64,000 nucleotides of DNA, from positions 99,448,001 through 99,512,000 of the forward strand of contig OZ260663.1 of assembly GCA_965285935.1 (NCBI GenBank), written 5' to 3'. The DNA comes from Ophelia neglecta. Its lineage: Eukaryota. Position 1 is the first letter of the stretch; each line of letters starts with the position of its first letter. The notes under the pieces were generated by a model. That model searched no databases, was not told where the DNA came from, and saw only the letters and a list, made by a program, of their open reading frames with translations. This document shows, one piece after another, positions 1 through 52,429 of this stretch. Both the position numbers and the translations under genes were made by a program.

Positions 1-46
1 TAGTGTACCATCATTGCAATTAGGGATATAAGTGCAAATGTTCTAC

Positions 47-11200: not shown

Positions 11201-12485
11201 AACCATCACGTATACTTATATACTACTAAAATGTAAATAAATGTTTCTTATGTCGTAAGATATTATGACCATTGATGGTTTACTGATTGTTGTAATATTA
11301 GTACATCTTACCGTGATAAAACTGGCGTTTATGTAGTCTGTTTCCCTAGCCGATTCTTCTATATCTAACACCACTCTATTATAGTCATCTGTATATGTAT
11401 GAAATGTTTATTATTCTGCTTCTACAGTTTACTCCTCAATTTATAAAGAACTTAATAAAGCCAACATTTTATCAGCCTCAAAAATGAAATTTCATGCGGC
11501 TGTTGTTCCACTATAAACAATAACAAATCACTTTATGTCATAAAAAAATCTTATAGCCTTTAACTAGTTCAGCAGTCAAAGACACATACATGCAGTTATA
11601 TCGTTAAACCTATTTTTCGGATGGTTTTCAGTCAATCGCCCTACAAGTATATCAAAAAGGGGTTCGCCTGGGATATCCTGAAAGAGAAGAAAACATACTT
11701 ATTTGCTCATTTTGCTCCTCACATCCGGTTAGACATATTCTGATGTTTTATTTTACGTTTTCCTAAATCAGAAAAAAATGACTTTATTTCAGTTGGAACC
11801 ACTTTGGTAGATTTATTAGTGTAGCAAGTGTAATAAATGGTCTTTGAGTCAATATCTAATTACATTTATATGACAGTATATGACAGCTTTAAGTGTGGTT
11901 CTATTGGCTGAAGTTGTGTTTAGGAAGAAATCGATCAGCAGTTTAATATACTTACAGGTGCTTTACCAGGCGTATATAATTCTGACCCTATAGAATATAA
12001 GTATAGAGCATGCAGACAATTTTACTTATCAAGTTCTTGTCCATATATACAAAATACCCCAAAACAAGAAATGATCAATCGTTTCAAACCCTAAATTCCT
12101 CTTTGAATCCGTCACTCTTCCCAGCTGGTCGTCGATGTAAGTCTTTAGATTCTCGACACTGATGACATTGGGCTCGAAGGACGGCGGGGACGGCAGGGAA
12201 GGCGTCTCATTCGCTGGACGATGTACCGTCAATTTATTATCCTCCGGGAATCGCACTCTCTTAATTCCCGTTGACAGTTTTTTCAGTTTTTCCAGTGTTG
12301 TTGGTTTCGGTGGCTTCTCCGGTTTGTGCGGGTTAGGTGATGTCTTGGTTGCCGGTTTTGGTGATTTATCAGGATTGGCCGCTGTGAAATCAGGCAATCA
12401 GAATAAATCACAACAATTGAAATGCATCGAATTCTACAACAACATCGCCAGTCATCCTTAATATTGTTGAGTTTATATGGATCTA

Positions 12486-12517
<32 letters not shown>

Positions 12518-13233
12518 TGCAGTTATCAGTGAATTCAGAGATGTCTGTTGACCAATGTTTAAAAGTGTAGCTGTTTAATCTAAGCCTCGGGCATATGCAC
12601 ATCAACATAAACATGGCTTTTCTAATGTTTACTGATTTGGATTTTTTTTTAAAGCAACACCTCATTTTTAAAATACCTATTTGTTCCGTAGGAATAATCG
12701 GCAGTAATTCTCCGCCATGCTCGGCATTATTTTGTTCCTTGCCTCCACCATGTACTTGGCACCTAGTGCACATATGACACGATTTCTTTCTACGTCTGTA
12801 AAAAATCCAAAATGTGATAACTGTATATTCTAAATCACAAGCTAGTTGCATTCAAAGCTTATCAGAACTCATCTATTGCTGGTGGACCAATCATATGTCA
12901 GCAAATTAAGCTTCATTTTGCGGTACAAGACGGTTAAACTCCCAAACCATTATAGCATGTATTGGCTTATGCTAATATGTACTCTAACACCTCCAATATT
13001 CAAGCAGCGTTTAACAGTTCCTATATCCGTGACCGATAGCTAACTGGAGGGAAACTAACAGTCCGTCCGATCGTAGGTTGTCTCCAAGAAGTCGGCGCGC
13101 TTAGTCTAACAGGAGCACTTGAATATCGGCGGAACTTACTTGTATTTCCCTGGCATTGTTTGGTTGGTTGCTAGCTTCGGATGATTTCGGGTTACCACTC
13201 CCGTTATGTTTCCAAACGCAGTTATAGTATAAT

Positions 13234-13329
13234 ATGAGGCTTTATGACCCCATAGACCATTTTTGTATAAAGTTTTGACATGCCACTTAATACTATTCTT
13301 CATTGGTCTAGTAGGTCATAAAGACTCAT
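13234..13329. mobile_element. Short inverted-repeat (MITE-like) remnant, also at ~46342-46437
   Basis: atgaggctttatgaccccatagacca ... tggtctagtaggtcataaagactcat form imperfect ~26-bp inverted repeats. Confidence 0.45.
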
Positions 13330-16300
13330 TACCATATTGGTATTGCTTAATTAGAACACACCTATAGGCGGCCTACGTGAATTGGTCGCGGTCACATAGC
13401 TGTTACTTTAAACACTACTTAACTCACTAGACGACGCGGAAATCTTTCTGGCTAATATATTTTTCACATTAACGCTACATTTAAACTGCATTTTAAATCT
13501 GTAATACTTTCTAATGCAGTTTATCTTGCAATAGACAGTCAATACTCTTGTTTTATTGCCTAAATATATCATATTGTTACCTTAGAACAACAAATATCAG
13601 GACGCCAACAGCTAGTGCGATCAGGAATACACAGGCAACGACAATTCCAGCTATATGTCCAGACTCAAGCCCTATGATAGTTTGTGGGTCGTTGGTGGCC
13701 ACTGGCATCGAAGTGCTTACTGTGACATATGTGAACCGTGTCGTCCCTTTAGTCGTTATTTCTGGGATAGGCGTTTTAGTCGTACTCGGTTTATGGGACG
13801 AAGTTGGCTTTAGGGACGTTGTTGTCGTTGACATATACATTTTAGTTGAAGAACCTGCAGAAGAAGGAACAACAGAACGTGAACCGTAATTCACCATTAC
13901 ATGCTCCACATGAAAAACGAATTATGATAGAGGTAAGACAAGGATAACACAGCGATACTAGAAAATATAGACTATTGAATAAGACGCTGTGGAAGTGCAG
14001 TCATTGTATTCCAGTAATGCTATGTGTTGCTACTATTCTACTCTTATTGTCACTATTGATGCCTTCCTTCTGATACAACACAAGCAAAAAGATTGTAGGT
14101 TGGGTCTCAGGCATTGAATAACATTATTGCCATGCACTAATGGAGCCAGTGATTAACTGGTGATCTTGTTAAAGCCTGACTTCAGATGTGTTATGCATAT
14201 GGTTTGCAATGATGACTGGTGTCCTTCTGCAGAGTTCATTCGTTTACACCCTGTAAAGAATGTGGGCTGTGACCAGTGTGCAGCATGGGCAGCGTTCAGA
14301 ATTATACAGAACTTCTCCTTCTTATATTACATGATTCTAATCAGACTGGCAGCGCTAGTGCTCTCACTGATACATTGGTTTAAATACAGGACACCAAAAA
14401 GGATATAGCATACAGGAAAATTTGTCAGATGTTAACGATAATTCGACCAGCATAGTTATTGGCCATATACAAATGTCCATGTAACTTTTCCGGATATACC
14501 AGGGATAGGGAAGCTTAAAGCAGCCAGTCGCTTAGCCATCTCCTTCGGCTGCAAATAAAATCTCTGCTCAGCCATCGTCTACATTCTCCGTACCACATGT
14601 TTTACCTTGATTGTGATATTGAGGATATAACAGTGAAAGGCAGGCTAAAAAGAAAAGTCCTAGCCCCACAGTGCAAGCCATCTCCGTATAACCTGTGCTT
14701 CAGCATTTTGAACTGGCTTCTTTTCGTTTACGTTCAATTTAGGATAGTACGGAGTGTGAATATATATTGTTGTTTTTAAAATGTTAGGTGCATCATCATA
14801 CATACACATTGTGTGGTTCAAAATTGGTTCTCTTCACAAATAAGAATGATTGTACTGGCTGAACGCCTGCTCTCTTCTTTTTCTATAAAACTTAGCAAAT
14901 GATCTAACCAATTGTTTTAGCCAGTGATTACTTTCAAGTGATCCTTGGGTGATCGGATCAGTGCATTTATTACATGCAACAAGATATATGTGCATAGAAC
15001 CGATCACCCAGGGATTACCTGAAAATAATCACTGGCCGAATCAATGAGTTACATCATTTTTACGTATCTAAACACATATATCGATGGATACTAGGAGAAA
15101 TACTAGCATCCAGCGTTCAGTGCTGGCCTGATGATTTCGGCCCGATTTCATGGACTTTTCTTGAATTGTGATTTGGTCTCGCTTGCTGGGTATCCAGTTG
15201 TCCCTCTTTATCACATAGAATATAATAATCTCTTGGTCATTACCAGTAATTGTCAACGCTGATGAGCTTCTAAAGCTTGTCTGTTCAGATGTCATGTCTC
15301 TTGATGTGGATGCTCCTGGTGTTATAGTCGTAGAAACGCTTGGTGCAGACGTCGTTTTACCAAAATCTAAATAGTAGACCAAAGAACAAAATCATGATGA
15401 AGGTGTACATGTTTATTTATATGAACACTATTCAAAATTGGCGCGTCTCATTCCAAAGAAGAATGTTAATTCAAGTTGGTTTCAACTTAGAAAATGCTTC
15501 ACCTGGAAATGTGCTGATGTTCAGATACGACTTAGTGAACGTATAGTATGTTTCTGGACTTTCTATTTTCTGCCCTGTCGTGTTAGTCCTGTAAGCTTTC
15601 AAATCAAACAGGTATCGAGTGTCGGCCTGTAGTCCTGATACAGTTCCCTGCTGCCACCCTGTGTTATTGTAAGGCACGTCTGCCCCCTCTGTCCACTCCC
15701 CTGATGACGTGCTAGGCCGTCTGTAGTATATACGGTATCCGATGTAAGGAGCGGCTCTGTCTGAGATTCCAGTCAGACCTTCTTTCCATCTCCAGGTTAC
15801 CGAGTCCATACTCACAGATACAGGGGTGGTGTCAGCCACATCAGACCCGCCAAAGCGCATTGTGGCTGGAAATTTGGCAAAAAGCAGGCATAGGAATATT
15901 TCTAAGTCAAACATGTAATAAAGAACAAATCTAGAATGTATGAAAAAAACTTCGCAATAGAGATTATAGCAAGGTGTATTTCATAATCTGCACCGTATAT
16001 ACTACCATAGCAAATTCTTGCAATCGAATTTAACACGGCAACCGTACATATCGTTTAAACGTTGTAAAACGATGGTAGAGTACTCCCTATGGCCAGACCT
16101 AGAGGGGCGAAGGGTGATACATTGGTCCTCTTGGCGCCCGTCAAACAAAGATACGGTAAAAACATTGAAGCAAAGTAGCGTTTTTCCCTTAAAAATGACT
16201 ATGATGTCAGATGTCAATGATTTTTTTCGCCGACACATACACACAGCAGGCACCGATATCCATGGAATGAGCCGTATTACACAGCGGGGGAAACCAGAGT

Positions 16301-16902
16301 AGAGGTTCCATAGCTAGCATAAGAATGGTATGCGTTCCTCTTATTCCCTTCATATTTGATGCGTATGTCCACCATTCATTTGGTTCGTAATGCGGTAAAC
16401 GTTGACGGTAAATGCCATAATTCGAGGATAGGATATACTCCAAGTGTTCTCGGGGGAGCGAAAAGTGAATCGACGGGTGTGCAACTTCCAATACCTCTTA
16501 TTCGCTGTGTGTTCGGTGTTCATACATAACCAAAGGGTATCTAGTAGGTCGTATTTCCACAAAGTTCATTACTGCTATTGGGTTAACGGCTGTACTTTGG
16601 CAGTAGCTAGTTAAAGCTCTTATGGTCATCTGTATATGGACCCATTATTGAGGCTCAATAGATCTCGCATGAGGCCTTGTCTATGATGTTGGGGCGGGGG
16701 GGGGGGGGGTCAGAAAATAGCGTGCGGGGTGGGGACTAGAAGGGAGATAAATGGAAGGGGTGTGGAGCGAATGGAAGCTAAGACCACTGCCTTTATCATT
16801 CAAAAGCACATATTCAGTTTATATTTTAAGCCAATGGTGCCTGCCAAATATTTCGAACATTATACATTATAAGGCAGTTGGACCTTTACGGTTATTGTTC
16901 AG

Positions 16903-17438
16903 ACTCAGAATCAGACATATTTATTTTGACCAAAAATATACACAGCAAATGTAACAAAAGTATAATACACATTTATGTAATAAAGCAATCTATTAAATAC
17001 AATATAGAAATGACAGTCAAGGAAACCCTCACTTAATATAAAAGTTTATCGCTAGCGAGAGGGCCACCCGTGTAAATACATTTTACACGAAGCGACGGGG
17101 TATCCCACGCCACGGTAGCCCCAATGCGACGCCACAAACCTAACGAAACATACCGTCACCTCCCCTGCCCACGCAGGACTCCCGCTACCATCAGTGGACC
17201 CAGAAATGGGCAAAATGTGAATAATTAAATCGCGACTCAAAACAACAATCTAGCGGGACACTGTCACACTCAACAAGTCTCTTACAATTTCAACTAGCAA
17301 ATAATCATGCTCAGATGTCACCAAAAAAAACACAAATAATTGAAACAAATAAAAGAGAAAAGAGAAGAGGAAAGCAAGACATTTCATCCCATTAATGACA
17401 ACAATTAGCCAATAATAAATGCAACCATACAACCATTT
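16903..17438. mobile_element. Foreign ~540-bp segment replacing the end of the FN3-1 exon and the EGF-2 exon of PTP-B; possible retroelement fragment
   Basis: Homology to PTP-E stops at both edges. The left edge reads on the minus strand as AATAAA followed by (TCTGAN)3, resembling a non-LTR element 3' tail. Confidence 0.45.
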
Positions 17439-20400
17439 ACCTTGTCCCCGGCTGTAGCCCTGATACAGCTCCCTGCTGCCACTCTGCTGAGTTGGAATAA
17501 GGTATGTCAGCTCCTACCGTCCACCCACCGGATGATGTTGTATCGGATGACGTTGTATACAGTCTGTAGTAAATACGGTATCCGATGTAAGGAGCGGCGC
17601 GGTCTGAGATCCCCGTGGTACTCTCCTGCCATCTCCAGGTTACAGAGAACGCGGTGACTGATACCGGAATAGTCTGTACAGTGTCAGCAGAGCCGAAATT
17701 CATTTGTGCTGTTGAATTAAAATAGAAATAACCATGAGGGACAGTGTAGAGAGACAGATAGTGTAAAAACAACAAGGCGCGAGAACGAAACGTCTGTATA
17801 AGTATAGTTCATACTCACGTATTCGGATGTCACATTGGTCTCCCGCCAGCCAATCCCCGTTGACATTGTCTACACATCCTTCAGTACATGCTCCCGTCGT
17901 CCTCGCACACAACGAGCTTTTACAATTCTGGTTACATATAGCTGTGCAATTTGTCCCGTATCGACCGTCCGGGCAGTCTGGATGAAAATATCAATTATAA
18001 TTTAAAATTGTTTCATTATCTTGCACTTAACAGTAGAAATTAACATTCTATTCGTTTACCCTGGTGGTTTTACAGTTAAATGGCTTAATAGCCATGTTAA
18101 TTAATTGTAACTTTTCATATTTATGTAATCATACTTGTTATATTTTAAATGTATTGCCTACATGCCTAGATTATTTTCCAAAATTCCAGTCGTAGAGATG
18201 GTTGGTTGAGTTGTAAGTGAATTTATTTTATTGCAGTTTAGCAAGTTGGTGGACCAGACTATCTAACGATTGAATGGTTAGTTTAAATGAAATGGGAAAA
18301 ATCTTTAATTCAGATGATATTATTCCGAATTCCTTGTGGTAACGAAAGACATAAAACACAATGCCTATCGATTTATAAAATAAATATGTAGGCGGTGAGT
18401 TTATTTATTGAGTTTACTTATAAGTACAGTACATTAAATGCCAATATACAAATCAACAAGTAGGACAGCTATTGCGTTATACGTCACAGATCGTGTGCGG
18501 CCTGATACCAGACTCAATGGGACAACTAACAAGGCCGGCTTATTGACAATTCACGCTTGCTGCACACAACATCGGCATGAAGCGTCTGGTTACTGTAAGT
18601 CACATTGATAAAGCATGTATTTATATTCACCTCTATGTTTAGGCATTTCGCTAATCCTATATTATACGTACACACAACAAACATTTGTTAGAAGTCATGG
18701 TCATCGGACAATGCCGGGGTTTGGGATTCGTCCACATAAATCGTAAAAATCTGCTTCGTCGACTATTAATCTTAGAATAGAATGGCTGCCATATTTGTTT
18801 GGTTTACACTCAGCCGTGCAATGCCTATTGCGCCGTACCGTACCAGTGCAATAGCCGTGATCAGGGAGAGAGCCTCCATACAAGACTTTACGAGTAGCGG
18901 CTTGATTTTTCAATGGTCCTTACTAATAAATCCTCGGCTTCTTACAAATCATGCTACGATGTTAGCTCGTTTTCTTTATAGAATTAATCCACCTGGTGTC
19001 CAATTTGTCTAATGGTGTGTCTTTGTATAATCAACACCCTTTTTCACGTATGTTGGCAGCTCGTCCGCTATCTTTAGAGAAAGCATTGCCCCAAATCATG
19101 AATTAACTATGGCTAAATGGTACTTTAAGTATTTAACACTATTTACGAGTTCGCAAATAGGCGAGAGAAGTTTTTTTACTAGAAGTCCATGCATACGCCT
19201 ACTACAACCAGCCCAGCACAGATTTCCAAATGGCCGACTCTGGAACCATCAGCGCCGCAGTTAAGACAACCATCGGCGCCTCCAAGCGCCTGAAAAGTGC
19301 TAACTTGGATACTGAGAATTATAAGGTCTGGTTTCTAGACAACCGGGTTCGTGAATGGCCGGATTCGGTGTAAACACGTGGTCTAGCGTCAGATACGGAC
19401 AGAGCCTGAACAGCTGATACCACTGTGCTAATAATTAAGGAGTCGCTAATATTACAATATTGTTTAACTTGGCTCAGCCAGTCAGTTTATATAGTATAGC
19501 TCTCATACCCACAGGCTACACATAGACAATAAGATAGTTCTGCTTTGTCTTCCACGCTGGACGAATGTAGCACACGCATCACATAGGAAATATAGCTGAT
19601 AGCTTTTCCCGCTAATAAAGGAGTCGATATTATTAATATAATGTTGTACGCCACCATAACAGCTAGTGCTGGCGACAGGTGAAAACGGCGCGTCCTACAT
19701 TGCCAGAGAGTAATCTAAAGTATCGATTTACCTTGTGTGTTCGCCAAGGCCAGGAACAACATGGATAGACATATCTTCATAGCCCACATGTTACCTAGGT
19801 ATTAAACCTAAAAGTAGTTCTCCTGGTGAAATGTTAAGTTGTTTTCCTAGTATGTAAGCCTTAATCAAAGCGTACTAAAGCTGCATTCTTCACCTGAGTA
19901 TAGGAAAATGTTGGAAGAACCGAGAACAAGGCTTCGTGTTTTCCTTTTAAATGGGTATTAAGCAGGTATTAAAGTCACTGATACTCTGCTGACCAGATAC
20001 ACTGCGTGAGAGTGGATATCCTAATTTTACTTCCTGGTTCGTGACGTCGATCCAACCCATCGAGAACCTTTCATACAACAAATCTCTGTAAGTGTATACT
20101 GCGCTAGAGCAGACGACACGCCTGGGCGGTTTGCTTTAACATGACAAAGAAATCTCAAGGACGGATCCTTAAATCTTGAGACGGCTTAAGGTCTCAGACA
20201 GGGAGTAGGTACCCATCCTTTTGTAAACTAAGGATGGGACATATGTCAAGCGGGACATTTGTCAAGCGGGTTGAGGCTTACAGTAAAACCTGACATTGTT
20301 GAAGATAAAAGACACAGCTAATAGAAACGAGTAATTTAGCTATATTGATAAGGTTCGGCGTAGGAGTTAGAATCAAGGATGGATTTGTTTTTACCTAGGG

Positions 20401-24036: not shown

Positions 24037-24085
24037 CTTTAATATCGGCCAAGGCCAGGCAAAGAATCGATACACATATCTTCAT
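24037..24085 (-). CDS. Extra signal-peptide exon (candidate alternative first exon of PTP-B)
   Basis: ATG..MKICVSILCLALADIK-G|GTAATA, phase 1 like the other first exons. The first ATG of the family is mutated to TTG and the second ATG is retained. The homologous upstream cassette extends to ~24930. Confidence 0.6.
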
Positions 24086-25987: not shown

Positions 25988-28900
25988 TCAGTTATTGTTG
26001 TTTAGATTGACGTCTTCATACTCGCCATTGATGACCGTCTGGGGTAAGTTAAGTGCTTCGTACTGTACCACACCGGTGTTTTCTAGAAACAAATGTGCAT
26101 CGCATTATCATGAAAATATGAACGTAAATTAACATTAATAGGTAACGGATAATTGATCACACAAATAATAGTATCCTCTCAGTATTAATTGTCCTTGGGC
26201 AGGATTCAGATTCCTAAAAAATTCAGACCTTTTATGACCTAAACGCAGTTACAAGTAATCAACAAATAATAAAAGCATACATGTAATTAATGAATAATAA
26301 AATACATTGAAGATAGCCTAAGAATGTCCGGAAAACCCCATTAAGATACGTCGTGGATGGCTGTCGCGTGGCAACCCTTCATGAAAAACGATACACCAAA
26401 TGAAAGCAGATTGGGTATATTTTGTTTGACACGGTACATTCCCTGAGCCATGTGATCTACACGCCTGATAATTCACAAATAGAAAATTTAAATGTTTACT
26501 ATCGTATGACAGCGGTTCAGTAAAAGGGTATTGCAATTCTAATAAAATGTTGGGGTGGGGAAAGGGTTGGGAGCCAGTTCTGTTAGTGCGAAGAATAAAT
26601 AACATTGCGTTACGCTGGCGAGTATAAATCGAAGAGAAAGAGTCTTAACTAATGAAACGTCAAAGGGCACTCACCATACGGAGGCACATTGTTTGTAGTC
26701 GGCGACTCATATACACGGACATTTTCCAGTGGTACATTCTCCACCTGAAGCTTGGACACATCGATGTCTTCGTATTGGGCTGGTTGGGGGTCGGAGTGAA
26801 CATCAGCGGCTGGTTTTGCCAATCTCTTTCTCTGGATAAACATTCTAAATAAAACCATGTTGTGTTTTAGCCTTACCATTGGCTCTTATACATGCGATAC
26901 GTACATAGATTATTTATATTGGATGACTTTAACATACAGTTACATTGGAGAATTGAAGAAGAGCAGCAAGCTCAGGTTACTAGTGTTCTCGCTATTCAAG
27001 TGCTAAAGTATTATATAGCTTCTTAAAGGTACATTTGTCCTTAAATTTACAACCAATGAAATCAATAGCAGGTAGTGCGTTTACTAGACAACTACTTTGC
27101 ATATATCAAAGGTACTCAGACTTTAGTTTGTTAAACATATGGACTGTACTAAAAAAGGATAGCGATAATTCATGGCGTGAAATAGTAATAGTCACGAAGT
27201 AATCAATGAGTGTCATGCCCGACGTTCGTAGTAACATAATTGTATAGTGTATTTCGGACGCCGCATTTTATTAGTGCGTCCATACTTCAAGAGTAAAATG
27301 TATCATATATTTAGCCAAATAAGAATCTGCCATATGTACCATAATATGCTAAAAGTTGAACACCCGTGAACACAGTACTTGGAGATGCAATACCTGAGAG
27401 TCATTCTTAAATGTTGACATGCCTTACTGGCTTCACCTTTCAGAAACGATGGATTGCACAATACCGCCAATGGTCAAACGCGGCGTCTGCTAGGCGTGTG
27501 TGTTTTAAGCAGTCAACTTATATGGCAAACAGAATTGAAGAAACATGTTAAACGGCGGGTTAGCTACACATACAACTGCAGAAAAAGCAGTAAGTAAAAA
27601 CGAATACCATATTCTAATAAAAATAAATCGTGTGCGCATTTTAGCAATTTGTAATTAGTTTTCTGTAAGGTTTGGCAGTATTTATGAGCACTTACTGTTT
27701 GCAGATGGACTTTTGTGTGCTTTGCGTTATACCAAACAATATGATACAAAATATTGAGCAATATAGCGAAATTTGGCTTACTTGAATACTAAACCAGAAC
27801 GAGGCTCATTGGCTGACAGCTCAAGAATTAATATACTGAACCAGAAGGATGTTCATTGGATGACAGTCAAAAATATTAATACATAACATACAGATAGTTT
27901 TATTTCTGAAGTTAATGTTTTCCATATATATATACTCATATACATACCCAAGATAGAAAAGAACTCCTCCCACCACACACATCCCTATCACTCCTCCCAC
28001 GGCGACTCCTATCACTGTAGACGTATCACCTGTCACCTGGACTGGACGTCTCGTGGAAAGTGATTTATCAATGGTTACGACACTTTTGGGCCCCATGCTG
28101 GTCGTTATTGGTCCACCGCCCTCTGTGATTAGTGACGGTATGGTGAGCGACTCTGCGTTGGTAGAAGAGATTATTAGGTTTTTACAGGCAGTTTAAATAC
28201 GGCATTAACTGTTTTGTTTTCTTAAACAGTTGCTTGAAGACAAGTTATACATTTTAACTATAAATTCATCTCCTCACATATTCGTCCTTGCATCATATCA
28301 TGTATATAATGTACTTTATATAAATGGCATTAATGTAAGTTAGTGCGGGACTCCTTTATTGAGACAATTTCATCATTGGTCTCTAAATTATGAAAGAAAT
28401 TAGACCGTCATAGACTCTCCAAGGACGAATTTCATCTGTGTTCTAGATAGAGAGGGTGGGGTGGGGGGGGGGGGGTTGTGGTACACAAATGAAGTTTTAA
28501 ATTGTTGATTAACGGCTTCTTCATTGTAAATATTCACGTAAAAACAGTCCTATTTTATTCAAAATAATGGTGGCTTATTATTGTTAACATGTTGTTGGGG
28601 TATATTTACTCCAGTTTTCTGATCATTACAATTGGACCTGAACAAATTATTTGTTAAGCGGCAGCACTTTTCCATTTGGCAAACGTTAAAATCGAGTATT
28701 TTCATCAATAATCAGACACCAGATCAGTATATTCGCACAAATGCGATGTAGCCCCAAAAGCCTGCTTGGGTAGATTTTTGGAAACTAGAATCGCAAAATG
28801 TAATCGTGGCTACACAAGTTTTTTGCAGTGCGGCGATCATGCACTCCCGGATGATTATAGAAGGCATAAAGACATTCTTGAACCCTAAGGTAGGCCTATG

Positions 28901-31900
28901 TTCATATATATTAATCAATTCAGCACGCACATGATTTCCTGACTTTTCATGAATCGTTTCGTAATACTGATACATAGTTCATTCAAAACCAGTAGCATGT
29001 CTAATAGAGAGTTCTAATAGAGTTTATTGGACATACATCGGAAAACACGACATCTGGTGGTGGGGCGTTGAAGGTAAAATCAAAATTAAAGTCCATGCTT
29101 GATGCAATGACGCATTGTGCTGTTATAATTCTAGTCGATAACATTTCCCAAACATATAGATTTTTGTTTAAAGTACATTGTTATTGATATAAATTCCTTT
29201 TTTTCTAATTGAACAAATGTAAAATCCCTGCCTTTCTTGAATGTGCAATTTGACATTAAAATCCCAACTAAAACTTGCCAATATACTGTCCCTTGCCGAT
29301 AACTCTTAAAGTATGGTTGAATAATTTTGAAAAGGTTGATGGGAAACAGGCATGGTGACTGAAATCCTCTGTATATGCCTACAGTACACTTCATGGCCAA
29401 AAATTACATTTCAATAATACAGACTTAACCTGTCATTAAAATATAAAGGCTAGAAGGAAACAAATAATAAACATATAGCACCGAATTAGCACATTTATAA
29501 ATGGTACCTTCTCCTCCAGATGTGTTCTTGCCATGTTAAGTGCATTTTTAACGTTATACTCCCAGGGTAGATTAGGGTTCTTTTTGGGGTAACAGCCTTG
29601 TGAATGTTTTTCTAATTTTTCAGACAATTTAAGGGTCCCACACATTCAATAAAGTTTACTAATTTCGCGAAAAGTGGGCGTTTTTTGTTACGACCTCCAT
29701 CATCTAAACAGCTTATAGCTAACGCTTTATTCTATAATAAGTTGTACACATTATGCACCTATTTATCCCACGAAACTTTTAAAAAAGGAGTAATTTAGTT
29801 ATATTTGTATAAGCGTTATGTGCAAGGCCAAATCCTCTGCACGTGTCTACCTTACAGCAACTAAACCTGACTGTAGCAACTAGAGTGCATATAAGCAAAA
29901 TTGGATTTTTTATATATAATATAGCCTACGATCGCGATATGTATTAAGGCCTATTATTTAGCGCGGTGCTATCATGGGTTGCTAGCATAATTTAGTCTTC
30001 ACGAGGATATGTATAAAAGGACAATTATTGCGGGCTTACACTGTGATTATACAGTAACGACTGGACAGTATGTTAATTTGCGTGTAGCTTGAGTCTTCCA
30101 ATGCCTACAAGCAACAATGTTTACTACAACTTTGCAACATATAGGCTGTTGTCTTTAACGTATCTCAATCGGACCGGTCTCAAACTGGCCTCAGTAGGTT
30201 TATAGTGAGTGCCCGGATTGGGGTAAAGCAATCGGAAGTCTGATATCTGAAACGTCACCTAAAATGCGGATTGCATTTAAACGTCATCTAAAATGTGCAT
30301 AGCTCTTAGAGGTATCCGCTCTGAAACATCTGGCACGGGTACTTCTGCAATGTCAGCGCATTATGCAGTCATCTGATAAAATACGTATTTCTTGCCTACT
30401 TGAAATGTTACAATTGACATCGTAAGCATGGATACCCCTCTCCCGTAGTAAATTAGCGCCCTCTATTGAAGTGTGTAATTGAACGGCCTAAGGAATAAAA
30501 GGCAGTATCTAGTCTAAACAGGGCATGCGTAGTACGCTACAACGCTACATGTTAAACGTTCTATATATGGATGTGATGTTGCTTTTAAATAACTAACAGC
30601 AGAAACTTAATTAGATTGAATTAATCGTAACTATAATACTAATCATAATAATAGAGTAGAGTGGTAGGAGTCGATGCATAGAGAGCTCCGTATCCTTAAC
30701 ATATGACAATACATTCCACGCATATATTTTGGTAGGTATAGATAGTAAGATAATAGAGCTTGTAGTTGTAAAGACCTCGAAGCATTTAATATAGCTCTTC
30801 GCGGCTAGGACTGTAGTTATATGCTTGGTTTCGTTTGCCCGTACATCTAACAGGGGCCAAATCCCTCAACTTTCATAATGAAATCTCAGTAGAAAGGTAG
30901 ATGGATTTTGGATGACACCCATATCTAAGGACAATTTACCCATGGTCAAAGCTTATTCGATTTTTGTTGTTGATAATTTGCCATCCCGAAATTTAACCGT
31001 ACAAGGATGCACATGCATTCCAAAAAGAATGAATAGTTACAGATATATTAAAGCTGCTGGTAAGGACGATGGTGCTTTCGGGAGGGTAAGGTTGTGGCTG
31101 GTGAGGGGCGAAGAAAATTTAGTTTGTTTTGTCGCAGTTAGTAAACCAAATATACTTTTGTTGTGGTTTACATAAACATAAATACCCCGAAAAAGATAAA
31201 GCATGATTTCATTATTTCTTATCTGTAGAAAGAAGGTCATGTTCTTGAAAGCCACGGGTCAGACTTAATTAGAAATAAACGGCAGCAGAGTTTAACGGTA
31301 TGTGAGCTTAATGGGAGGTGAGCTTAACGGGAGGTGAGTTTAACCGTCGTTGAGCTAAACGGGTGGACACCATCAGATGTGAGGACACATATTTGTGACA
31401 CTGTTCATGAATTCAAAATAACCTATCAAAATCAATATATTATTAATATAAGTAAGAAAACAATAAAGATTTATTTCTATTTTCAATAAAACAAGTGTGC
31501 AAAAATCTGAATCCGCGAATTTATTGTACAAGGGCCCCTAAATTAATTAATCAATATGTATGTATCAAAAATACTTGCATCGTATATACAATGGTAATGG
31601 CTGTGAGTGAATTTTCGTATCTGATAAATTGTGTAGTTCTTGCCAACTTTAAATGTTACTGTGGCTTGCTTTATAATGATCAAATCAAAATGTTTTACCT
31701 GACAAAGTCCGGGCATCCAAATACGACAATTTGTACTTGTAGTATGTTTCCAGACTTTCTACTTTCTGTCCAGTAGAGTTGATCCTGTACACAGCCAGAT
31801 CAAACTGATACCTAGTGCCGGCCCGTAATCCCGATACAGTTCCCTGCTGCCAGTCTGTTTTGTTATATTTGACGTCAGCTCCAACTGCCCAACCCCCCAT

Positions 31901-34850
31901 TGACATGATATAGAGTCTGTAGTATATGTGGTATCCGATGTAAGGAGCGGCTCTGTCTGAGATGCCCGTCAGACCTTCCCTCCATCCCCAAGTTACCGAG
32001 TCTTTGCTAATAGATAGAGGTGTCGTTTCAAACTCGTCAGACCCATCAAACCGCATAACGGCTGGAAAAATATGTCTGGTTGTCATATTGCTTGTTAATA
32101 GTACCTTAAACATTATTTACAACGGGATCGAAATTCATGGTCTAGCTCCAATTCATGGTCTAGCTCCAATTCATGGTCTAGCTCCAATTCATGGTCTAGC
32201 TCCAATTCATGGTCTAGCTCCAATTTGCAAGGTAAACTAATTTGCTACTGACCAGACTAGTATAGTAAAAAGATACCTGCAATCAACGTCTGTAATACTA
32301 CCTGAGAAACACATAGTATATTTATTGTGCTGGTTACTTACGTATTATGATGTCACACTGTTCACCTGCCCGCCAATCACCACTCACATTGAAGTCACAG
32401 TCAGTACAAGCTCCGCTCTCCGGCTCACAGCCATCCTTACACAGCCTGTTACATCGTTTTGTACAGGCAGGGCCGTAATAAGCTACCGGACATTCTGATC
32501 AATATACATAATGATTTTCTTATATTTATTTAATATTTTAAAAAGATAGTGTACCATCATTGCTATTAGGGATTTAAGTGCAAATGTTCTACCTGTAAAG
32601 GTCGTTGTGGCACTAAGGGGATATCCCCTTGATGTGCTATATGTGATGCCACTTTCTACTAGCTCTTTATCAGTCATTTTTCTGTAGACAACCAGATCAA
32701 ACTGGTACCGTGTCCCCGGCTGTAGTCCTGATATAGTCCCCTGCTGCCACTCTGTGTTAGAGTAAGGAAGGTCAGCTCCGAGTGTCCACCCCCCTGATGA
32801 CGTTGTATACAGTCTGTAGTGTATACGGTATCCGATGTAAGGAGCGGCTCTCCTTCCATCTCCACGTGACCGAGTTTGTGGTCACTGATACCGGACTAGT
32901 CGGGACCTCGTCAGCAAAGCCGAAATTCATCTTAGCTAGTAAAATGAGAATAATGCACCTTGAAACAAAGGAGGTATTTTCTTGAAATAATGTTTATATT
33001 TGCTTCATTCTTTGCATACAACGAGTCGAGTGTGAAAAACCAACAAATTCCGAGTTAGTTACAAGAATGATATATATTAATAGACAACACTCACGTATTA
33101 TGATATCACACTGGTCCCCTGTCAGCCAATAACCCGTCCCCTGGATACCACAGCCATCAGTACACTCCCCACGGTCCCTGACACACAGTCTGACCTTACA
33201 CTCAGGGTTACAGACGTCATCGCATTCAGTGGCATCCATGCAGTCTGGAAGCAAAGAGAATCATGTGGATGTTTAATTTTAATTGATGGGCGTCCGACGG
33301 AACAATCATCTCAAGGAGTAATAATTCACTGATAAAATGTTCCACGTGTATAATCACACTGTAGTAAGCTACACACACCACACCTGTGTGAATACAATTT
33401 CAATTTTTAAAAATTTAGTATGCTATCTGTTTTTCCGCATAAAGTTGACGCCACGTGCCAAATATATCTAACAATGTATATGCTACATTCTTGTTTAGTA
33501 TGTATGAGGATTTTCGCATTATTTTATGTGTACATCTTATTTGTACATCTGTATACATAGCTTTAAAATGTATGTATAAATTATCTGAAATGCTGACGTA
33601 TTTACTTAAGGACATAGGTAAACAAAGCGTTTGGATACGCCAAGGAAAGGGAAAGGAAACATGTCGTTTAAAGATTTTTCTTTTCTTTTACCCCCCCCCC
33701 CCCCTGCATTTTCCAGAAATTGAAAAAAAAGAAAACAATTTACAACCCCTCACTCCCCTCCACACACACACCCTTTCCTTCTATGTCCCTTCTTTCTCTC
33801 CCTCCTCCTCCTTCCCAAACCACTCTGAAATGCAAAGAATGATTCGCCTCAATCCTAGATCCCGTCATCTCTAACCTCCAACCCGCACCCCCCCCCCCCC
33901 CATTCTACACGACCCCGCAGCTTCCTGGCCTCAACGCACTAACAAGATTCACATCCCTAATGAGTTCATAAGCTAATCTCTGTGTCAGAGCTTTTTATAT
34001 AACTGGTAAAACTAATTTGTTTGTTGCATAATGCAATCGCCAAAAATATCATAACCTTCCTGGGGCTCATAGCTCAAGTCTGTCTTGTCTAAACTGGAAC
34101 CTTTCTCTTTACATAATAAGAGCCTGTTTGCTCCTACTAAGATATCAAAGCCTTGTTTGGCCAGAACACATGACATTATAATGCAACCCCCTTCACTGCC
34201 CCTGATTGTTTCCTTTCTTTCTCAAAACAGTATAAAACGCCTGAAATAGAAAGAAAAGCAAAAATAAAGCGAAAAATGAACCATGTTCAGCAGATAGCAA
34301 ATTTGGTTTATCGTTGCCATGGCAGCCGAACTATTTAAGGTAACAGATTTTGCTGTATCAAGCGCAGTGTTTAAAATTTCGTAAAAGTAGTAGCAGTAGT
34401 AAGTTTATGAAAGGTATCCACAAAATGTTTTTTAAAATTCGACCAAATGCATTCAATGCGCCAAAAGTTGGTTTTTTTACGGCCAACATGAGGACCATTA
34501 CATACCACATATTTTTATTGAAAAGGTGGGGCATAAATACCATGGAAATAAGTAGGCACGGAGAAAATAATGCTGATAACTGAATGGCTACATCTGAACG
34601 CTTAGGTTCCTAGTGGGCAGAATGTCGTACACGCATCAAAATAGAGGAATGAAAGCTGATATCTTTGATTGCTAATGAAAAAGTCGAGACTACTATATTA
34701 TGATGGTGAACACCACGATAACACTAAGCTTTGGCCTTTTGCTGATAAGCGCGTCGTACATTGATCTAGAGTAATTTTAAGAAATGGTTTACCTTCTGTG
34801 TCCGCCAAGGCCAGGAAAAGCATCGTTAGACATATTTTCATGGCACCCAT
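25988..34850 (-). CDS. Receptor D: SP-EGF-FN3-EGF-FN3-TM receptor with a tyrosine-motif tail and no phosphatase domain (FN3-1 exon frameshifted; open only if that exon is skipped)
   Basis: Exons 34793-34850, 33095-33244, 32593-32935 (343 nt vs 363 in A), 32342-32494, 31699-32061, 27948-28152 (TM VIGVAVGGVIGMCVVGGVLFYLG), 26675-26844, 25988-26082 (stop TGA). Phases are consistent. AATAAA lies downstream on the minus strand at ~25826-25870. 518 aa if the deletion is repaired, 397 aa if exon 3 is skipped. Confidence 0.8.
31287..31364. repeat. Degenerate 16-bp tandem repeat (tgagcttaacgggagg-like) x~5
   Basis: gagtttaacgg.. gagcttaatggg.. gagcttaacggg.. gagtttaaccg.. gagctaaacggg at 16-nt spacing. 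Probably part of a non-autonomous transposon remnant. Confidence 0.7.
32132..32225. repeat. 18-bp minisatellite (aattcatggtctagctcc) x5, intronic
   Basis: Five perfect units read directly from the sequence. Confidence 0.95.
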
Positions 34851-39514: not shown

Positions 39515-42500
39515 TTACTGGAAGTTGGCGTATGTGGCATATCTGGACATACAGTGCAAGGCCAGCTCATGGAGGTATCTGTACTGGGCCTGTAACGACA
39601 AGGGTACGGGACAATACTGTATTTTATAGTTGCTAGACCAAGGCCTTCATCAATAAAATACAAAAATTCGAACACATATGTACGATAACTACATCGTTGA
39701 TAGATATATTAATTTTCCTTTAACAGAAACAAATGAAATCGAAAGGTAGTTAGCATAAAGTTACAGCAGGATTAAATACTCGAAGTCATTTAAAGAAAAT
39801 AAATCTTGAAACATGGGTTATTATAAAACACATGAAATAAATGCATAAATAATTATAATGCTCTGTTCTTTTCGTACCAGTGAGTTAACAAACTGGGGTC
39901 TTCGGTCGCAGACGTAACGGAGACAAAGGAACACGTCGACCGCTTGGTCGACTTTCATCTTCTCTAACATACAGTTGGCAGCACAAAACAGGCCACTCCT
40001 CATCGCCCCGTCCCTGGAGGAATAATAACATAAGCAAGTTGGTTTGGATTTGTTCAAAATATTTTAATAATCGGATGAATTTTCATATTTTCATAATCAT
40101 TGTAGGATGAGGAAACAACCTACGCCCTTCTCCGACCCCCCCACCCCCACCCCCAAATATTTACATGCACTGTACAATGATTGGTTTGGCCTGGTCTCTA
40201 TCTCTCATCCAACTTTCTATTGTGTCTAAGAGATCCAAGAGCGAGTTCATCCCTGGCAGCTCGCTGGTGTCCGGCCAATCCGATAACTGGAACTGCCTGA
40301 CAGTCAACGGCTCGCTATCATCCTGTACGAGGAAATCAAAGTCAGGATATGCTCAAGGCTTGTTAATTATGCTAAAAAGCTATTAAAATGCCCCAAATTG
40401 TATGGAGCAGTTTAACTTGTTTCGTAGCGGGTATTTTTTCTTATATCATCAAAGTCGGTTTTACCAAGAACCCACAAATGAAGACATCAATGTTTATTTC
40501 ACTATTTGGTCATGTGTATACCTCGTCTGGTTCTGTGACTTGGAACTCTCTAACAAGGATAGGCCCGACTGTCTCTGTTAATATGATCTCCACTTGCATA
40601 CCGCCGTACATCTGTCTGTGGTACTGGACATCATCTGGCCAGTACCTCGGAAACGTCTGGACAGAGATGAAGAGAAACGTGTTGTTTGCAGAGATAGGAA
40701 ACAGCATAATGTCTGCACCTAATGGCTCGTAAGATGCTTAGCACTAAACTAAATTCATTTCATAAACACATTACCGTGATTGTAATTGTGGGCATTGGTT
40801 CCTGAATGAAGGTAATGATTCATTCTAATACTATTGTCTTATGTTAAGCTTTCTTACTTTACATATCAGGGTACGATTCATTATGCGGATTACTAGACGT
40901 ACTAAATGCATTGATTAAAAATATAGATATGGATAATCGCCGTTACCGAGTCATTCCCATCTTGCTTGTCTAGCAGTACAATAGTAGAAGATTTCTGTTG
41001 GTAGACCAGGCGCCAGAAGTCGTTCATTGTGCTGGTCAGCGGCATTTGGGTGGCGATCATTGCCTTCTCCTTCAGGTATGTCTGACCATGTAACAAATAA
41101 TGCAACGAATAGGATAATTTTGTTTATATCTTGTTTTGGGGTGAAGTGGGCCGAATCCTATGATAGTGTCTGCACATTGTAGTTCACTAGCATCATTTAA
41201 ACGCTGTCTACAGATTTGAAAACCGTCAAACACTTTTCCCGGATGGATGGAGTTATATCTTTGTCTAGAAGGTTTAAGGAAATACCTTTGTGCTTAAGAT
41301 CGAAATGCGGCATTATTTAGCTTTGAAAGTTACAGTGATTAAGCCCAAATAAACTCCGACTGTGCATATACGATTTCCTTTAATATCAGTTACATTCTTA
41401 CATCCACGTAGACGGCATTGATGTAAGTTCCCTCTTTTTCTGACGTCTTCTTCAGTACAGGGAAGTCATCGTCTCCTGTAAGAAGATAAGTTAATTAAGG
41501 TATACCGTAAGCATACCCGGTAATACAGAATTACAGATACGAGAAGCGGATACAAAGATACAGGGTATAAGGACATGTATGTATATGTATATGGTTTGGG
41601 ATGTTTCAGTTACATTATTAGCATAACCATAAACCATACGCCTAACACTGTCACAACTAAAACTTATTGTTTTCGTACAAGAGCATCTCGTATTTCACTC
41701 GTGTCTCGTATCTAGCTTTAAAATATGGCCTAAACTAAGCTAAAAAAAAATATTAAAACTTGTTTTAACATACTAGGAACGATCTCGTCATTTCTGTTTT
41801 TGTCGGCGTTTTCATCCAGGAGGCCGATCAGGTTTTCCCGTTGGATTGTCGCTTTGACGCTGTTCAATATCTAAATATAATATGAAACATGCCAGGCACA
41901 ATTATTGTGACAGCGGGGTTCCATTTGAAGATCTCGTTGTCTATAGCTGAGATATTACAATATCAATTCCATATAGTATTGTTAGTTTGTTAAAAAAGAA
42001 TCAACATTGACACATGTGTATCCAGAATATACTTTGTAATGCCAGATACCTAGCTACTGGGTTAAGTAGTACCTCAAATTGTTCCCCTAGAGGTGTCGTC
42101 TCATTTTCATTAACAGTCCCAAGCGCGTTCATTGTCACCTGAAGGTTGCCGCATGGAATGGAAGTGTTTCCGCTGGTCACATTATCCAGCAGAGCTTTAT
42201 ATACGAACTCGTATTGGGCCTGTAATAAGCTATGTTTTAGTGTAAGGCTAAGCATGACGTGATAAGAGAAGTATCAGGCAATAGAAACGACGAGAACGTC
42301 GAATATTTCCTAGATGGGTCCATTAACCCAAGAACTATTAATGTGCTCATGTATTGTCCTAAAGTTTGTGGCGGCGTATATCTACTTTTATTAAGCCACC
42401 TTTTGAGGCAGCATGTATATGCGTTTAACAAGCCTGTTACCTTAGTTTGTACCATCTTGAGCCGCTCCCGCCTCAGGCAGTTAACCAATGAGAAGACGTC

Positions 42501-45500
42501 CACTTTACCCTCCGCATCGGCCTGTTGTATCAGACAATCCAGAGCGATAAATGTCCCAGTTCGTCCTACCCCGGCACTATGGCGAAAAACAGCCAATAAA
42601 CTAATATGAATTACAATACAGTGAGTAATAGTAAGCCTCTCTTTATTTGTAATATTATTTTATTATAATTAAGATGTTATCTTCGAAAAGAAATCATGTT
42701 TCTATAACCCAACCACCACAACATTTATAAATTATACGAGCAGAAATTGCATTTCTCATATCAAATAAAAGTTTCCCTTCTGTTTACCTGCAGTGCACGA
42801 TCATGGGGCCCTTACTGACGCTGTCAAAGGATCTGACCTTTCTTCTGAAGGCGAGCAGAGGGTAGGCCTGCTCCGGAGCCTTCTTGTCGGGCCATTGCAG
42901 AAATTGCATAAGACGTACAGTCCTGGATTCTTTCTGTACAATAAACAATGTATGATTAGTTTCGCATTGAACACTTTGGTTTATTATGAACATTAAGGGC
43001 GGTGTCTTTTGGTGTATTTCGACATTTCATATGGCTTAAACCAATTAAAGATAAATATTTCCATTGACTTTATGGCTTAAAGTACCCAACCTCATGCTGT
43101 CGAGTGATCAGCAGTTTTCCGGACTAGGTGTTGCGGCTAAAACTCAATAGGTGGCGGAGAAGCAATGCAGCCCATGTAGGCTTTGGACGATATTTGATTT
43201 ACCATTGGACACACGAATGCCAATCAGTCTTAAGTGCAAATAAAGTTGGCTCACTTTGCTGCATTACAAGTCGTATAGTCCAACAACCAACATACACGTA
43301 CCATAGATAATGGCACTGAATCGAGGTGGAGTGGAGGACGGTTTGTCTAGCACATAGTACCCTGGGTATACTCTAATGGCCCATAGGTGGATACTACACC
43401 CTATTAACCGTTGGTTAATAACACTACCGTGAGTATGTATCGTACATGAGCCAAAGAAAATAAACTGCTGGGAAAGGGATCTTCAAGTTAAGTATCACAA
43501 TTCTGTTCACACGAACCTGACATTAGTACCTACCCTTTTACAGACGTTGAGTATGCAAAGGTTGTAATCCGTGAATGTATCACGGCTGACTGTGGTAATC
43601 CGGTAGTTACCATACTGTTCCTGACCTCCCACCGTCTCAGGCCAGTATCTCTCACATTTCCTCTGTTAATCAGGAAATAATTAAGTTAAATAACTTCACT
43701 GTTAAATATATATGTATTTATACCAGTTTTGAACAATCAAACCCGTTGAATTCCGCTTTCGTTAGATGAAAAATAATGGATATTATTTAAATATAGCATG
43801 GGCTTGCTTAAACATTGTTTTAATAAACTTCATAATTATAAGCTACATAGAAAATGATAAATTTTGTAAAGATAATATGGTGACCTCTTTAGTTTTCATA
43901 TATGTCATACAGGTATTTTGATTTCCACAACAACTAAATATCAACTGATCATATACCTTTTTATTTTCTACAAACTTGGTGAGCATTACAATTCTATTAG
44001 CTTTAGATTGCCAAATCATTCTCCACATATCACGAGTAGTTTGAGGCCTTGGTCCTACAAAAAAAAGAATACCGACCCTGTAAGCGATGTTAATAACAGA
44101 ACTTTTTAATGTAAAGGTTTAGTGTATTAGTGTAGAAATAGTAGAGGAAGTCTTTGATGAACGCACCTTGTGAAGCAATGTAAGCTTTCTCCGTCCAGTT
44201 GTATCCCTGCGGATTAATATATTTAATGGCATGGAAAAGAGTGGAGATACGAATATGAGTTGACAGTTGACGTGAATGGAATTGTATAATTTCGACATTT
44301 CACAGTCTATCTGGCGATTATTTAAACCATCACGTATACTTATGTACTACCAAAATGTAAATAAATGTTTCTTATGTCATAAGATATTATGACAATTGAT
44401 AGTTTACTGATTGTTGTAATATTAGTTCATCTTACCGTGATATAACTGGCGTTTATGTAGTCTGTTTCCCTAGACGATTCTTCTATATCTAACACCACTC
44501 TATTATAGTCATCTGTATATGTATGAAATGTTTATTATTCTACCTCTACAGTTTACTCCTCAATTTATAAAGAACTTAATAAAGCCAACATTTTATCAGC
44601 CTCAAAAATGAAATTTCATGTGGCTGTTGTTCCACTATAAACAATAATCAAATCACTTTATGTCATAAAACAATCTTATAGCCTTTAACTAGTTCAGCAG
44701 TCAATCACACATACATGCAGTTATATCGTTAAACCTATTTTTCGGATGGTTTTCAGTCAATCGCCCTACAAGTATATCAAATAGGGGTTCGCCTGGGATA
44801 TCCTGAAAGAGAAGAAAACATACTGATTTGCTGATTTAGCTCCTCACATCCGGTTAGACATATTCTGATGTTTTATTTTACGTTTTCCTAAATCAGAAAA
44901 AGAAATGACTGTATTTTAGTTGGAACCACTTTGGTAGATTTATAAGTGTAGCAAGTGTGATAAATGGTCTTTGGATAAATATTTAATTACATTTATTTGA
45001 CAGTATGACAGCTTTAAGTGTGGTTCTATAGGCTGAAGTTGTGTTTTGGAAAAAATCGATCAGCAGTTTAATATACTTACTGGTGTTTTACCAGGCGTAT
45101 ATAATTCTGACCTTATGTAATATAAGTATAGAGCATGCAGACAATTTTACTTGTACTTTACCATTAATACAAAATACCCCCAAACAAGAAATGATCAATC
45201 GTTTCAAACCCTAAACTCCTCTTTGAATCCGTCACTCTTCTCCAGTTGGTCGTCGATGTAAGTCTTTAGATTCTCGACACTGATGACATTGGGCTCGAAG
45301 GACGGCGGGGACGGCACGGAAGGCGTCTCATTCGCTGGACGATGTACCGTCACTTTACTATCCTCCGGGAATCGCACTCTCTTAATTCCCGTTGACAGTT
45401 TTTTCAGTTTTTCCAGTGTTGTTGGTTTAGGTGGCTTCTCCGGTTTGTGCGGATTAGGTGGTGTCTTGGTTGCAGGTTTTGGTGATTTATCAAGATTGGC

Positions 45501-51500: not shown

Positions 51501-52429
51501 TGATCAGGGAGAGAGCACCCATACAAAGACTTTTCTCGTTCCAGTCGCGACTTGATTTACTAATGGTCCCTACTATCAAATCATCAACTTATTACAAATC
51601 ATGCTACGATGTTTGCTTGTTTTCTTTATAGAATTATTCCACATGGTGTCCGATTTGTCCAATGGTCTCTCTTTGTTTAATTAACACACTTCTTCACGTA
51701 TGTTGGCAGCTCGTCCGCTATCTTAAGAGAAAGCATTGCCCTAAATCATGAATTAACCATGGCTAAATGGTACTTTAAATATTTAACACTATTTATGAGT
51801 TCGCATATAGGCCAAAGAAGTTATTTTACTAGAAGTCCATCCATAGGCCTTCTACAAGCAGGCCAGCACAGAGTTCCTAGTGGCCGACTTTGGAACCCTC
51901 AGCGCCGCCGTTATGACATCCATCAGCGCCTCCAAACGCCTGAAAAAGTGCTAACTTGGATACTGAGAATTATAAGTGCTGGTTTCTAGACAACCGGGTT
52001 CGTGAATGGCTGGTGTAAACGCACGTGGTCTAGCGTCAGATACGGACAGAGCCTGAACAGCCGATACCACTACGCTACTAATTAAGGAGTCGCGAATATT
52101 ACAATATTGTTGACCGCTCAACCAATCAGTTTATATGGTAACGCTCTTATATCTACAGGCTACAGACAAAAAGAAGGAACTGCTTTATCTTCCAGGCTGG
52201 AAGAATGTAGCACACGCATCACATAGGAATTATAGCATATAGCTTTTCCCGCTAATAAAGGAGTCGATATTATTACTATAATGCTGTACGTCACTAGAAC
52301 AGCTAGTGCTGGCGACAGGGGAAAACGGCGCGTCCTACATTGCCAGAGAGTAATTTAAGATATGTATTTACCTTGTGTGTCCGCCAAAGCCAGGAAAAGC
52401 ATCGATAGACATATCTTTATAACTCTCAT
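39515..52429 (-). CDS. PTP-E: receptor-type protein tyrosine phosphatase, SP-EGF-FN3-EGF-FN3-mucin stalk-TM-PTP D1-PTP D2, 1199 aa, apparently intact
   Basis: 24 GT-AG exons summing to 3600 nt: 52372-52429, 50323-50481, 49790-50176, 49534-49686, 48246-48608, 47946-48068, 47210-47483, 45786-45904, 45210-45502, 44715-44802, 44436-44512, 44167-44206, 43957-44054, 43534-43662, 42788-42933, 42441-42576, 42073-42219, 41774-41870, 41402-41475, 40947-41081, 40522-40656, 40165-40322, 39878-40013, 39515-39589. Motifs include KNRF, DYINAS, YIASQGP, KCERYWP, WPD, VHCSAGVGRTG and MVQTKAQY; D2 has VQCMDGAMRSG. Confidence 0.92.

Follow-up and report, generated by a model that had tools for sequence, protein, structure and literature searches.

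A conserved five-tyrosine cytoplasmic tail in an Ophelia neglecta receptor array that exchanges ectodomains with receptor phosphatases

The stretch of Ophelia neglecta DNA analysed here (64,000 nucleotides, referred to as the window; Table 1) contains a receptor gene whose cytoplasmic tail was predicted to carry five Y-E motifs (YEDI, YESP, YENT, YEAL and YEDV), with receptor phosphatase (PTP) genes as its neighbours. This raises the question of whether the five motifs form a genuine signalling module and, if so, what such a module might do within the array of genes that surrounds it. The exons encoding the predicted stalk, transmembrane helix and tail are bounded by AG acceptors and GT donors and can be joined without a break in the frame, and their predicted product includes the 87-aa tail, ending in a stop, that the first-pass annotation of this DNA had given. 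Tyrosines lie at tail positions 24, 45, 56, 64 and 78 (hereafter Y1 to Y5), each followed by glutamate, so all five motifs are present, although the gaps between them (21, 11, 8 and 14 residues) contradict the regular spacing ascribed to them earlier. YENT would indeed come into being only after splicing, since its tyrosine is encoded in the first cytoplasmic exon and its glutamate codon is interrupted by the intron. Spacing apart, the Y-E observation on this tail is real. Five YE pairs appeared in none of 200,000 shuffles of the tail, and at least four in none of the 23,640 unspliced six-frame windows of 87 codons in the DNA examined. A Pfam search of the tail exons found no domain. Three runs behave as DNA contigs: they cover the introns and, among the joints displayed, include none at the predicted junctions, and they do not constitute a splicing test. 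What speaks for the predicted splicing is its conservation among paralogues.

A DNA search of the genome located 27 near-paralogous tail loci, all at C5:99.47-104.58 Mb. Twenty-five of these were rebuilt, leaving out one locus with an exon split by a 3.8-kb insertion and another with the last exon only. AG is found at both tail acceptors in all 25 rebuilt paralogues, and the first tail exon measures 170 nt in 24 of them and 164 nt in the remaining one, its donor being GT in 19 and GC in six. Y1, Y3 and Y4 are kept in 25/25 tails, Y2 in 23/25 and Y5 in 24/25, and both the asparagine at Y3+2 and the proline at Y2+3 are invariant (25/25). Synonymous TAT/TAC variation occurs at four of the five tyrosine codons. 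The pairwise dN/dS of the tail is 0.46 (0.35-0.81 in a bootstrap on 10 sequences), and on the tail tree the five tyrosine columns account for two changes in all, versus a mean of 2.3 for each of the remaining columns (permutation p = 0.002). The tyrosines are therefore conserved among paralogues, a check that the first-pass annotation had itself proposed. That annotation had also pointed to the tail of gene A, at the left edge of the window, for the same comparison; gene A ends in PTP domains and was rejected as a tail paralogue, so the comparison is impossible as it was framed.

The GC-donor tails form a subfamily at C5:99517, 99636, 99769, 99813, 99996 and 100851 kb, and a sixth motif, YEN[L/I], is present in five of these six genes as well as in two GT-donor genes. 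Two further tails, at C5:99623 and 100947 kb, are cut short by a stop in the glutamate codon after Y5 and thereby lose the last motif only.

The same motifs recur in a divergent tail subfamily, in which 14-18 of the 56 residues of the first tail exon are identical. All eight members examined contain YEDI/YEYI and YExP, and seven of the eight have the exon-final tyrosine. Where its last exon was found (five genes), it adds YQGL/YQEL, and a YxN motif (Y-V-N) is completed over the junction in four of the five. The junction-spanning YxN is kept though the split codon encodes E, D, G or V. Conservation of the tyrosines in paralogues and in the divergent subfamily thus indicates that the tyrosine motifs are under selection, the splice-generated one among them, and the tail is very probably a genuine, selected tyrosine-docking module.

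Which partners would such a module recruit? The earlier suggestion of a tail that docks several SH2 proteins gains support from the selection signal, namely the slow tyrosine columns and the invariant Y3+2 and Y2+3 positions, with YxN as a presumed Grb2 ligand, YxxP as a presumed Crk/Abl ligand and YED[IV] as a presumed Src/Nck ligand. Like NTRs (non-catalytic tyrosine-phosphorylated receptors), the tail receptors appear single-pass and non-catalytic, with conserved cytoplasmic tyrosine motifs. For ITIMs and ITAMs, the consensus definitions of a Hydractinia Alr preprint (bioRxiv 10.1101/2022.03.04.482883) were used. VQYEAL fits the ITIM consensus [I/L/V/S]xYxx[I/V/L], as had been claimed, and this consensus is found in 16/25 tails, the residue at Y-2 of Y4 varying among V, G, A and E. 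The description of YEAL-x10-YEDV as ITAM-like fails, because both its spacer of 10 and its second half, YEDV, depart from the consensus Yxx[I/L]x(6-9)Yxx[L/I]. Scanning the 25 tails for an ITAM returned none with a spacer of x6-8 and two with x6-12, both with a spacer of 10. An extra YEDV-x6-YEN[L/I], present in 7/25 tails, misses the ITAM consensus only through its V.

Upstream of the tail, the ectodomain exons are arranged in the order signal peptide-like, EGF-like, FN3, EGF-like and FN3, all of them phase 1-1. Pfam gave no match for the two EGF exons; a search with an EGF profile gave SCARF1 as its sole PDB match, a weak one (E 0.33), and the EGF modules alternate with FN3 and form no repeat run. 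Alignment to the corresponding exon of gene A disclosed a 20-nt deletion in the first FN3 exon, overlooked by the first-pass annotation and flanked by two AGAG repeats. A transcript retaining every exon would meet a stop after 120 aa; when the first FN3 exon is skipped, the frame continues for 394 residues to the tail stop. A pattern scan returned eight paralogous FN3 exons, all with the undeleted spacing, the pattern being unable to match a deleted copy. The deletion may be an assembly error or reflect heterozygosity. Unless the first FN3 exon is skipped, this copy is probably a pseudogene or encodes a secreted fragment. The gene is likely a damaged family member, whose tail would reach the membrane only with the frameshifted FN3 exon skipped, an event that keeps the frame. 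An intronic tandem repeat, about five copies of an approximately 18-nt unit, occupies window positions 32130-32230.

Table 1. Predicted exons of the five-tyrosine tail gene and its neighbouring genes, in window positions.
Feature	Position	Strand	Description
Gene A, 5' part	1..1573	-	Continues left of the window into PTP domains
Gene B, downstream neighbour	6347..19780	-	Shared ectodomain family, tandem PTP domains (Pfam Y_phosphatase); first FN3 exon stops at about 17440
Tail gene, last coding exon	25988..26082	-	Completes YENT over the junction, then VQYEAL, YEDV and stop
Tail gene, first cytoplasmic exon	26675..26844	-	Basic stop-transfer stretch, YEDI, YESP and exon-final Tyr of YENT
Tail gene, stalk/TM exon	27948..28152	-	Ser/Thr-rich stalk and uncharged, Gly-rich transmembrane helix; homologous exon in paralogues
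Tail gene, second FN3 exon	31699..32061	-	Intact, phase 1-1; Pfam fn3 match slightly below the curated cut-off (E 7.9e-5)
Tail gene, second EGF-like (8-Cys) exon	32342..32494	-	Intact, phase 1-1
Tail gene, first FN3 exon	32593..32935	-	343 nt; 20-nt deletion near 32850, frameshift and premature stop
Tail gene, N-terminal EGF-like exon	33095..33244	-	Phase 1-1
Tail gene, signal-peptide-like first coding exon	34793..34841	-	ATG to GT donor; near-identical exon upstream of most paralogues
Gene D, upstream neighbour	39905..52420	-	EGF-FN3-EGF-FN3-TM-PTP-PTP; no lesion in exons screened; runs slightly below 39905

The tail gene is one member of a large tandem array. Exon-type mapping over approximately 1 Mb yielded 59 gene models, comprising 27 PTP genes, 27 tyrosine-tail genes, two divergent-tail genes and three fragments, and more divergent-tail genes lie at C5:101.1-102.5 Mb. 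The order of classes along the array is irregular (PPYPYYYYYPYYYPPPYxYPYY..., where P denotes PTP and Y denotes tail), which rejects a strict pairing of PTP and tail genes. The tail may, as the first-pass annotation suggested, be a substrate of the neighbouring PTP, although gene B, the PTP neighbour on the downstream side, has a truncated first FN3 exon. Genome-wide, the FN3 exon gave 495 candidates, and the 150 that were scored all lie at C5:99.2-104.6 Mb; the PTP D1 exon gave 294, of which the 150 scored are mostly on C5. No kinase-bearing sister gene was found at C5:99.2-104.6 Mb among the 128 of 922 candidates scored. Lesions (a stop, a truncation or a missing exon) affect 12 of the 27 models of each class among the exons screened, a count in which two models are fragments or cut by the edge of the DNA examined and for which PTP exons were screened in part; these numbers are consistent with birth-and-death evolution.

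Very large RPTP expansions also occur at C5:95.8-98.8 and 110.6-112.7 Mb, at C7:87-91 Mb and on C16. Within gene B, about 1 kb of unrelated DNA (window positions 16400-17440) stands in place of a segment that is present in gene D. In addition, orphan divergent-tail exons lie at C5:99685881 and 100907718, approximately 3.5 kb past the last-mapped D2 exon of two PTP genes and, where checked, beyond the PTP stop; they are likely leftovers of tail-to-PTP swaps.

The two classes share ectodomains. The ectodomain of gene A, a PTP gene, is 83-89% identical in protein sequence to that of the tail gene in the EGF and second FN3 modules, and the nearest N-terminal module of the tail gene belongs to a PTP gene at 94% identity. 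Of 45 genes compared, 29 have their closest N-terminal module in the opposite class, and the best cross-class identity of this module is 89-96% in 44 of the 45 and 82% in one. When 53 N-terminal EGF+FN3 modules are placed on a tree, the label PTP or tail changes 19 times versus a mean of 17 after shuffling; at least 11 class changes are forced by well-supported branches, and a single tail clade is rejected (AU test, p = 2e-63). Clustering by class is only a little stronger on the tree of membrane-proximal FN3 exons, with 13 changes versus 16, and 35-45 of 500 shuffles are as low. A Mantel comparison of ectodomain and tail identity (rho 0.19, p = 0.03) includes one mis-assigned tail, and no weight is placed on it. 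Because the tails share a common origin while the classes are scattered over the ectodomain tree, recombination must have joined ectodomains and cytoplasmic modules many times. The array thereby shows two hallmarks of paired receptors: highly similar ectodomains joined to different cytoplasmic modules within one cluster, and ectodomain exchange or gene conversion across the classes, as documented by the tree and the AU test. Average dN/dS values of 0.37-0.62 for the ectodomain exons speak against gross diversifying selection on them, and unequal crossing-over within the tandem array could have mixed the ectodomains as a neutral side effect.

The D1 domain of gene B retains intact WPD, HCSAGVGRTG and Q-loop motifs and a KNRF pTyr-recognition loop, and a D2 domain follows, which is the layout of a classical tandem-domain RPTP. 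The best PDB matches of PTP D1 are PTPRE and PTPRA; a PDB search with the PTP last exon gave no match. The PTP ends in YANFQ, which we take to resemble the C-terminal phosphosite of RPTP-alpha. SHP2/PTPN11 is usually a low-copy gene; here 11 tandem SHP2/PTPN11-like loci, 56-100% identical over one exon, are located at C2:96.40-96.67 Mb. A tandem-SH2 kinase of the ITAM-linked Syk/Shark type is present in the genome: Syk was identified through its best PDB match (E 1e-19), and C8 contains an ORF of Shark-like SH2-ankyrin-kinase layout. Src-family-like kinase exons form a tandem cluster at C5:3.28-4.36 Mb, where at least one locus has two SH2-start exons, and further exons, named by eye, are presumably those of Src-family, Csk, Abl, Crk and Nck proteins.

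Taken together, the architecture leads us to favour, with moderate confidence, a paired on/off system, in which predicted non-catalytic EGF/FN3 receptors sharing the conserved tail are interleaved with PTP sisters and swap ectodomains with them. Ligand-driven clustering would lead Src-family kinases to phosphorylate the acidic Y-E sites of the tail, and the phosphorylated tail would dock several SH2 proteins, through its Grb2-type YxN, Crk/Abl-type YxxP and Src/Nck-type YED[IV] motifs. SHP2 might dock at VQYEAL as feedback, and a PTP twin with the same or a similar ligand would strip the phosphates from the tail. The tail receptors would then constitute the signal-emitting arm and the PTP receptors its built-in brake, the balance of engaged twins setting the output, most likely in immune recognition. 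Several points count against parts of this proposal. Ectodomain dN/dS reveals no excess of amino-acid change, unlike that of many pathogen-driven receptors; the absence of an ITAM from all 25 tails, together with the ITIM in 16 of them, leaves an 'on' polarity of the tail receptors conjectural; neutral recombination could account for the mixing of ectodomains; and the copy described here is frameshifted. A broader version, tentative and on the doubtful side, would see here a spiralian paired-receptor system whose inhibitory arm is the receptor phosphatase: dozens of EGF/FN3 ectodomains, shuffled time and again between a catalytic PTP module and a five-tyrosine adaptor tail, alongside an 11-copy SHP2 array, would make up a germline-encoded, recombining self/non-self repertoire that arose independently of KIR, Ly49 and Alr.

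Other arrangements of the same parts are conceivable. The two classes might cooperate, an improbable arrangement in which an RPTP-alpha/epsilon-like twin would remove the inhibitory phosphate from Src-family kinases and Src would then phosphorylate the tail scaffold, both receptors being needed for the on state. The PTPRE and PTPRA matches of D1, the YANFQ terminus with its presumed likeness to the RPTP-alpha phosphosite and the Src-family-like exon cluster on C5 at 3.3-4.4 Mb all speak for cooperation, but it offers no reason for interchangeable ectodomains in roughly equal class numbers. We consider it just as improbable that the tail receptors are themselves inhibitory, leading from the ITIM to SHP2, so that both classes would dampen another activating receptor, one by its own phosphatase and the other by a recruited one. 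Such a role would agree with the ITIM and ITAM counts (16/25 and, at canonical spacing, 0/25), with the expansion of SHP2 to 11 tandem loci and with a transmembrane helix devoid of a charged residue for an ITAM adaptor; however, the Y-2 residue of the ITIM is not fixed at Y4, whereas the YxN and YxxP positions are invariant, and the SHP2 loci, which lie on a different chromosome, may work for other families of receptors. A role in non-immune adhesion, scavenging or neural recognition, with tails signalling to the cytoskeleton and neutral mixing of ectodomains, seems less probable still. The combination of EGF/FN3 ectodomains and RPTPs is characteristic of adhesion and axon guidance, the average dN/dS carries no signal of diversifying selection and the EGF module weakly resembles SCARF1, but the expansion is lineage-restricted with many broken copies, and it resembles the snail clusters tied to parasite resistance in the passages of PMC12297450 and PMC13712769. 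Finally, that the motif pattern is an artefact of splice sites picked by eye or a neutral relic is very improbable: the tail gene is frameshifted upstream and its splicing is read from sequence, but splice sites, exon length and frame are conserved among the 25 paralogues, tail dN/dS is below 1 and the junction-spanning YxN persists whether the split codon specifies E, D, G or V.

How does the favoured paired on/off system compare with known receptor clusters? Multi-tyrosine docking is a known receptor design, and the tail alone is ordinary; the significance lies in the array, where ectodomains are swapped between phosphatase and tyrosine-tail receptors. KIR, PIR and Siglec pairs, alongside the CD300 pair discussed below, are vertebrate paired immunoreceptors. 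The closest known system is the SCARF/MEGF-RPTP clusters of Biomphalaria. As described in passages of PMC12297450 and PMC13712769, the SudRes1/LG5R receptors are tandem single-pass receptors with EGF-type ectodomains that undergo gene gain, gene loss and domain loss. Tandem PTP domains are confined to part of them (subgroup 1C), while the majority have a short tail without catalytic domains. The tandem cluster, the EGF-type ectodomains and the coexistence of PTP and non-catalytic ends are thus common to both. In contrast, the Biomphalaria ectodomains in these passages contain galactose-binding/fucolectin domains, whereas those described here alternate EGF and FN3; the short tails are described as lacking signatures, the main texts containing no mention of ITAM or ITIM (PMC12297450, PMC13712769); and the main-text passages describe no exchange of ectodomains between PTP and tyrosine-tail receptors, although the supplements may hold tail sequences.

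Among vertebrate paired immunoreceptors, CD300A and CD300C have near-identical ectodomains kept so by gene conversion, different cytoplasmic signalling and frequent pseudogenes, according to passages of PMC12447643. The similar ectodomains, divergent cytoplasmic signalling and pseudogenes are shared with the present array, without homology. In the vertebrate pairs, as far as these passages go, inhibition works through ITIMs that bring in SHP and activation through a charged TM coupled to an adaptor, whereas here one arm has PTP domains of its own and the other an intrinsic five-tyrosine tail behind an uncharged TM. NTRs, in the passages of PMC11399299, are likewise non-catalytic and have conserved tyrosine motifs in the cytoplasm, whose state Src kinases and receptor phosphatases plausibly determine; their triggering is attributed there to size-based exclusion of unrelated large phosphatases, whereas the phosphatase ectodomains here belong to the same family and are of similar size. 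Invertebrate counterparts exist in Hydractinia Alr (bioRxiv 10.1101/2022.03.04.482883) and Botryllus FcoR (PMC12065747), which, in the passages available, share with this array single-pass clusters, exon shuffling, pseudogenes, tails with ITIM, ITAM or tyrosine cores and several SHP homologues in the genome. Their ectodomains are Ig-based and those passages report no PTP-bearing sisters, whereas the array has EGF/FN3 ectodomains with PTP sisters; moreover, Alr tails are described there as highly divergent, in contrast to the single tail design that is maintained in the present array. The literature, partly covered, contained no description of a PTP/tyrosine-tail array with shared ectodomains.

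Outside Ophelia, the closest named eukaryotic homologue among ten looked up is Capitella teleta ELT98150.1, which matches the FN3 profile (E 5e-16) and has the same FN3/EGF-like/FN3 alternation; it is a hypothetical, partial and uncharacterised protein, compared by its ectodomain only. Most other matches to the FN3 profile were generic FN3 proteins or unnamed fragments of a single exon, and an Atlas search with the Capitella homologue returned nothing beyond generic FN3 clusters, all of them under 0.9. The tail exon, an FN3 exon and a PTP exon gave no match in word-based protein searches, which is weak evidence.

Large spiralian RPTP expansions, including the snail loci tied to schistosome resistance, have been without a signalling model, and the array offers a testable one. 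In this model, every phosphatase receptor would be matched by non-catalytic twins whose ectodomains are interchangeable with its own and whose tyrosine tail is conserved; particular SH2 proteins are put forward as partners, and orphan RPTPs are given a candidate class of substrates. It further predicts that the 'featureless' short tails of snail and bivalve clusters merit re-reading for spliced tyrosine motifs.

Two additional kinds of element were observed in the window. Extra signal-peptide-like exons with flanking repeats, situated upstream of several genes, lie at positions 24044-24085, 55003-55050 and 59193-59240, and may be alternative first exons or remnants of deleted genes. Positions 59540-64000 on the forward strand contain Gypsy-like LTR retrotransposon ORFs in several frames, with gag-, protease-, RT-, RNase H- and integrase-like segments recognised by eye.
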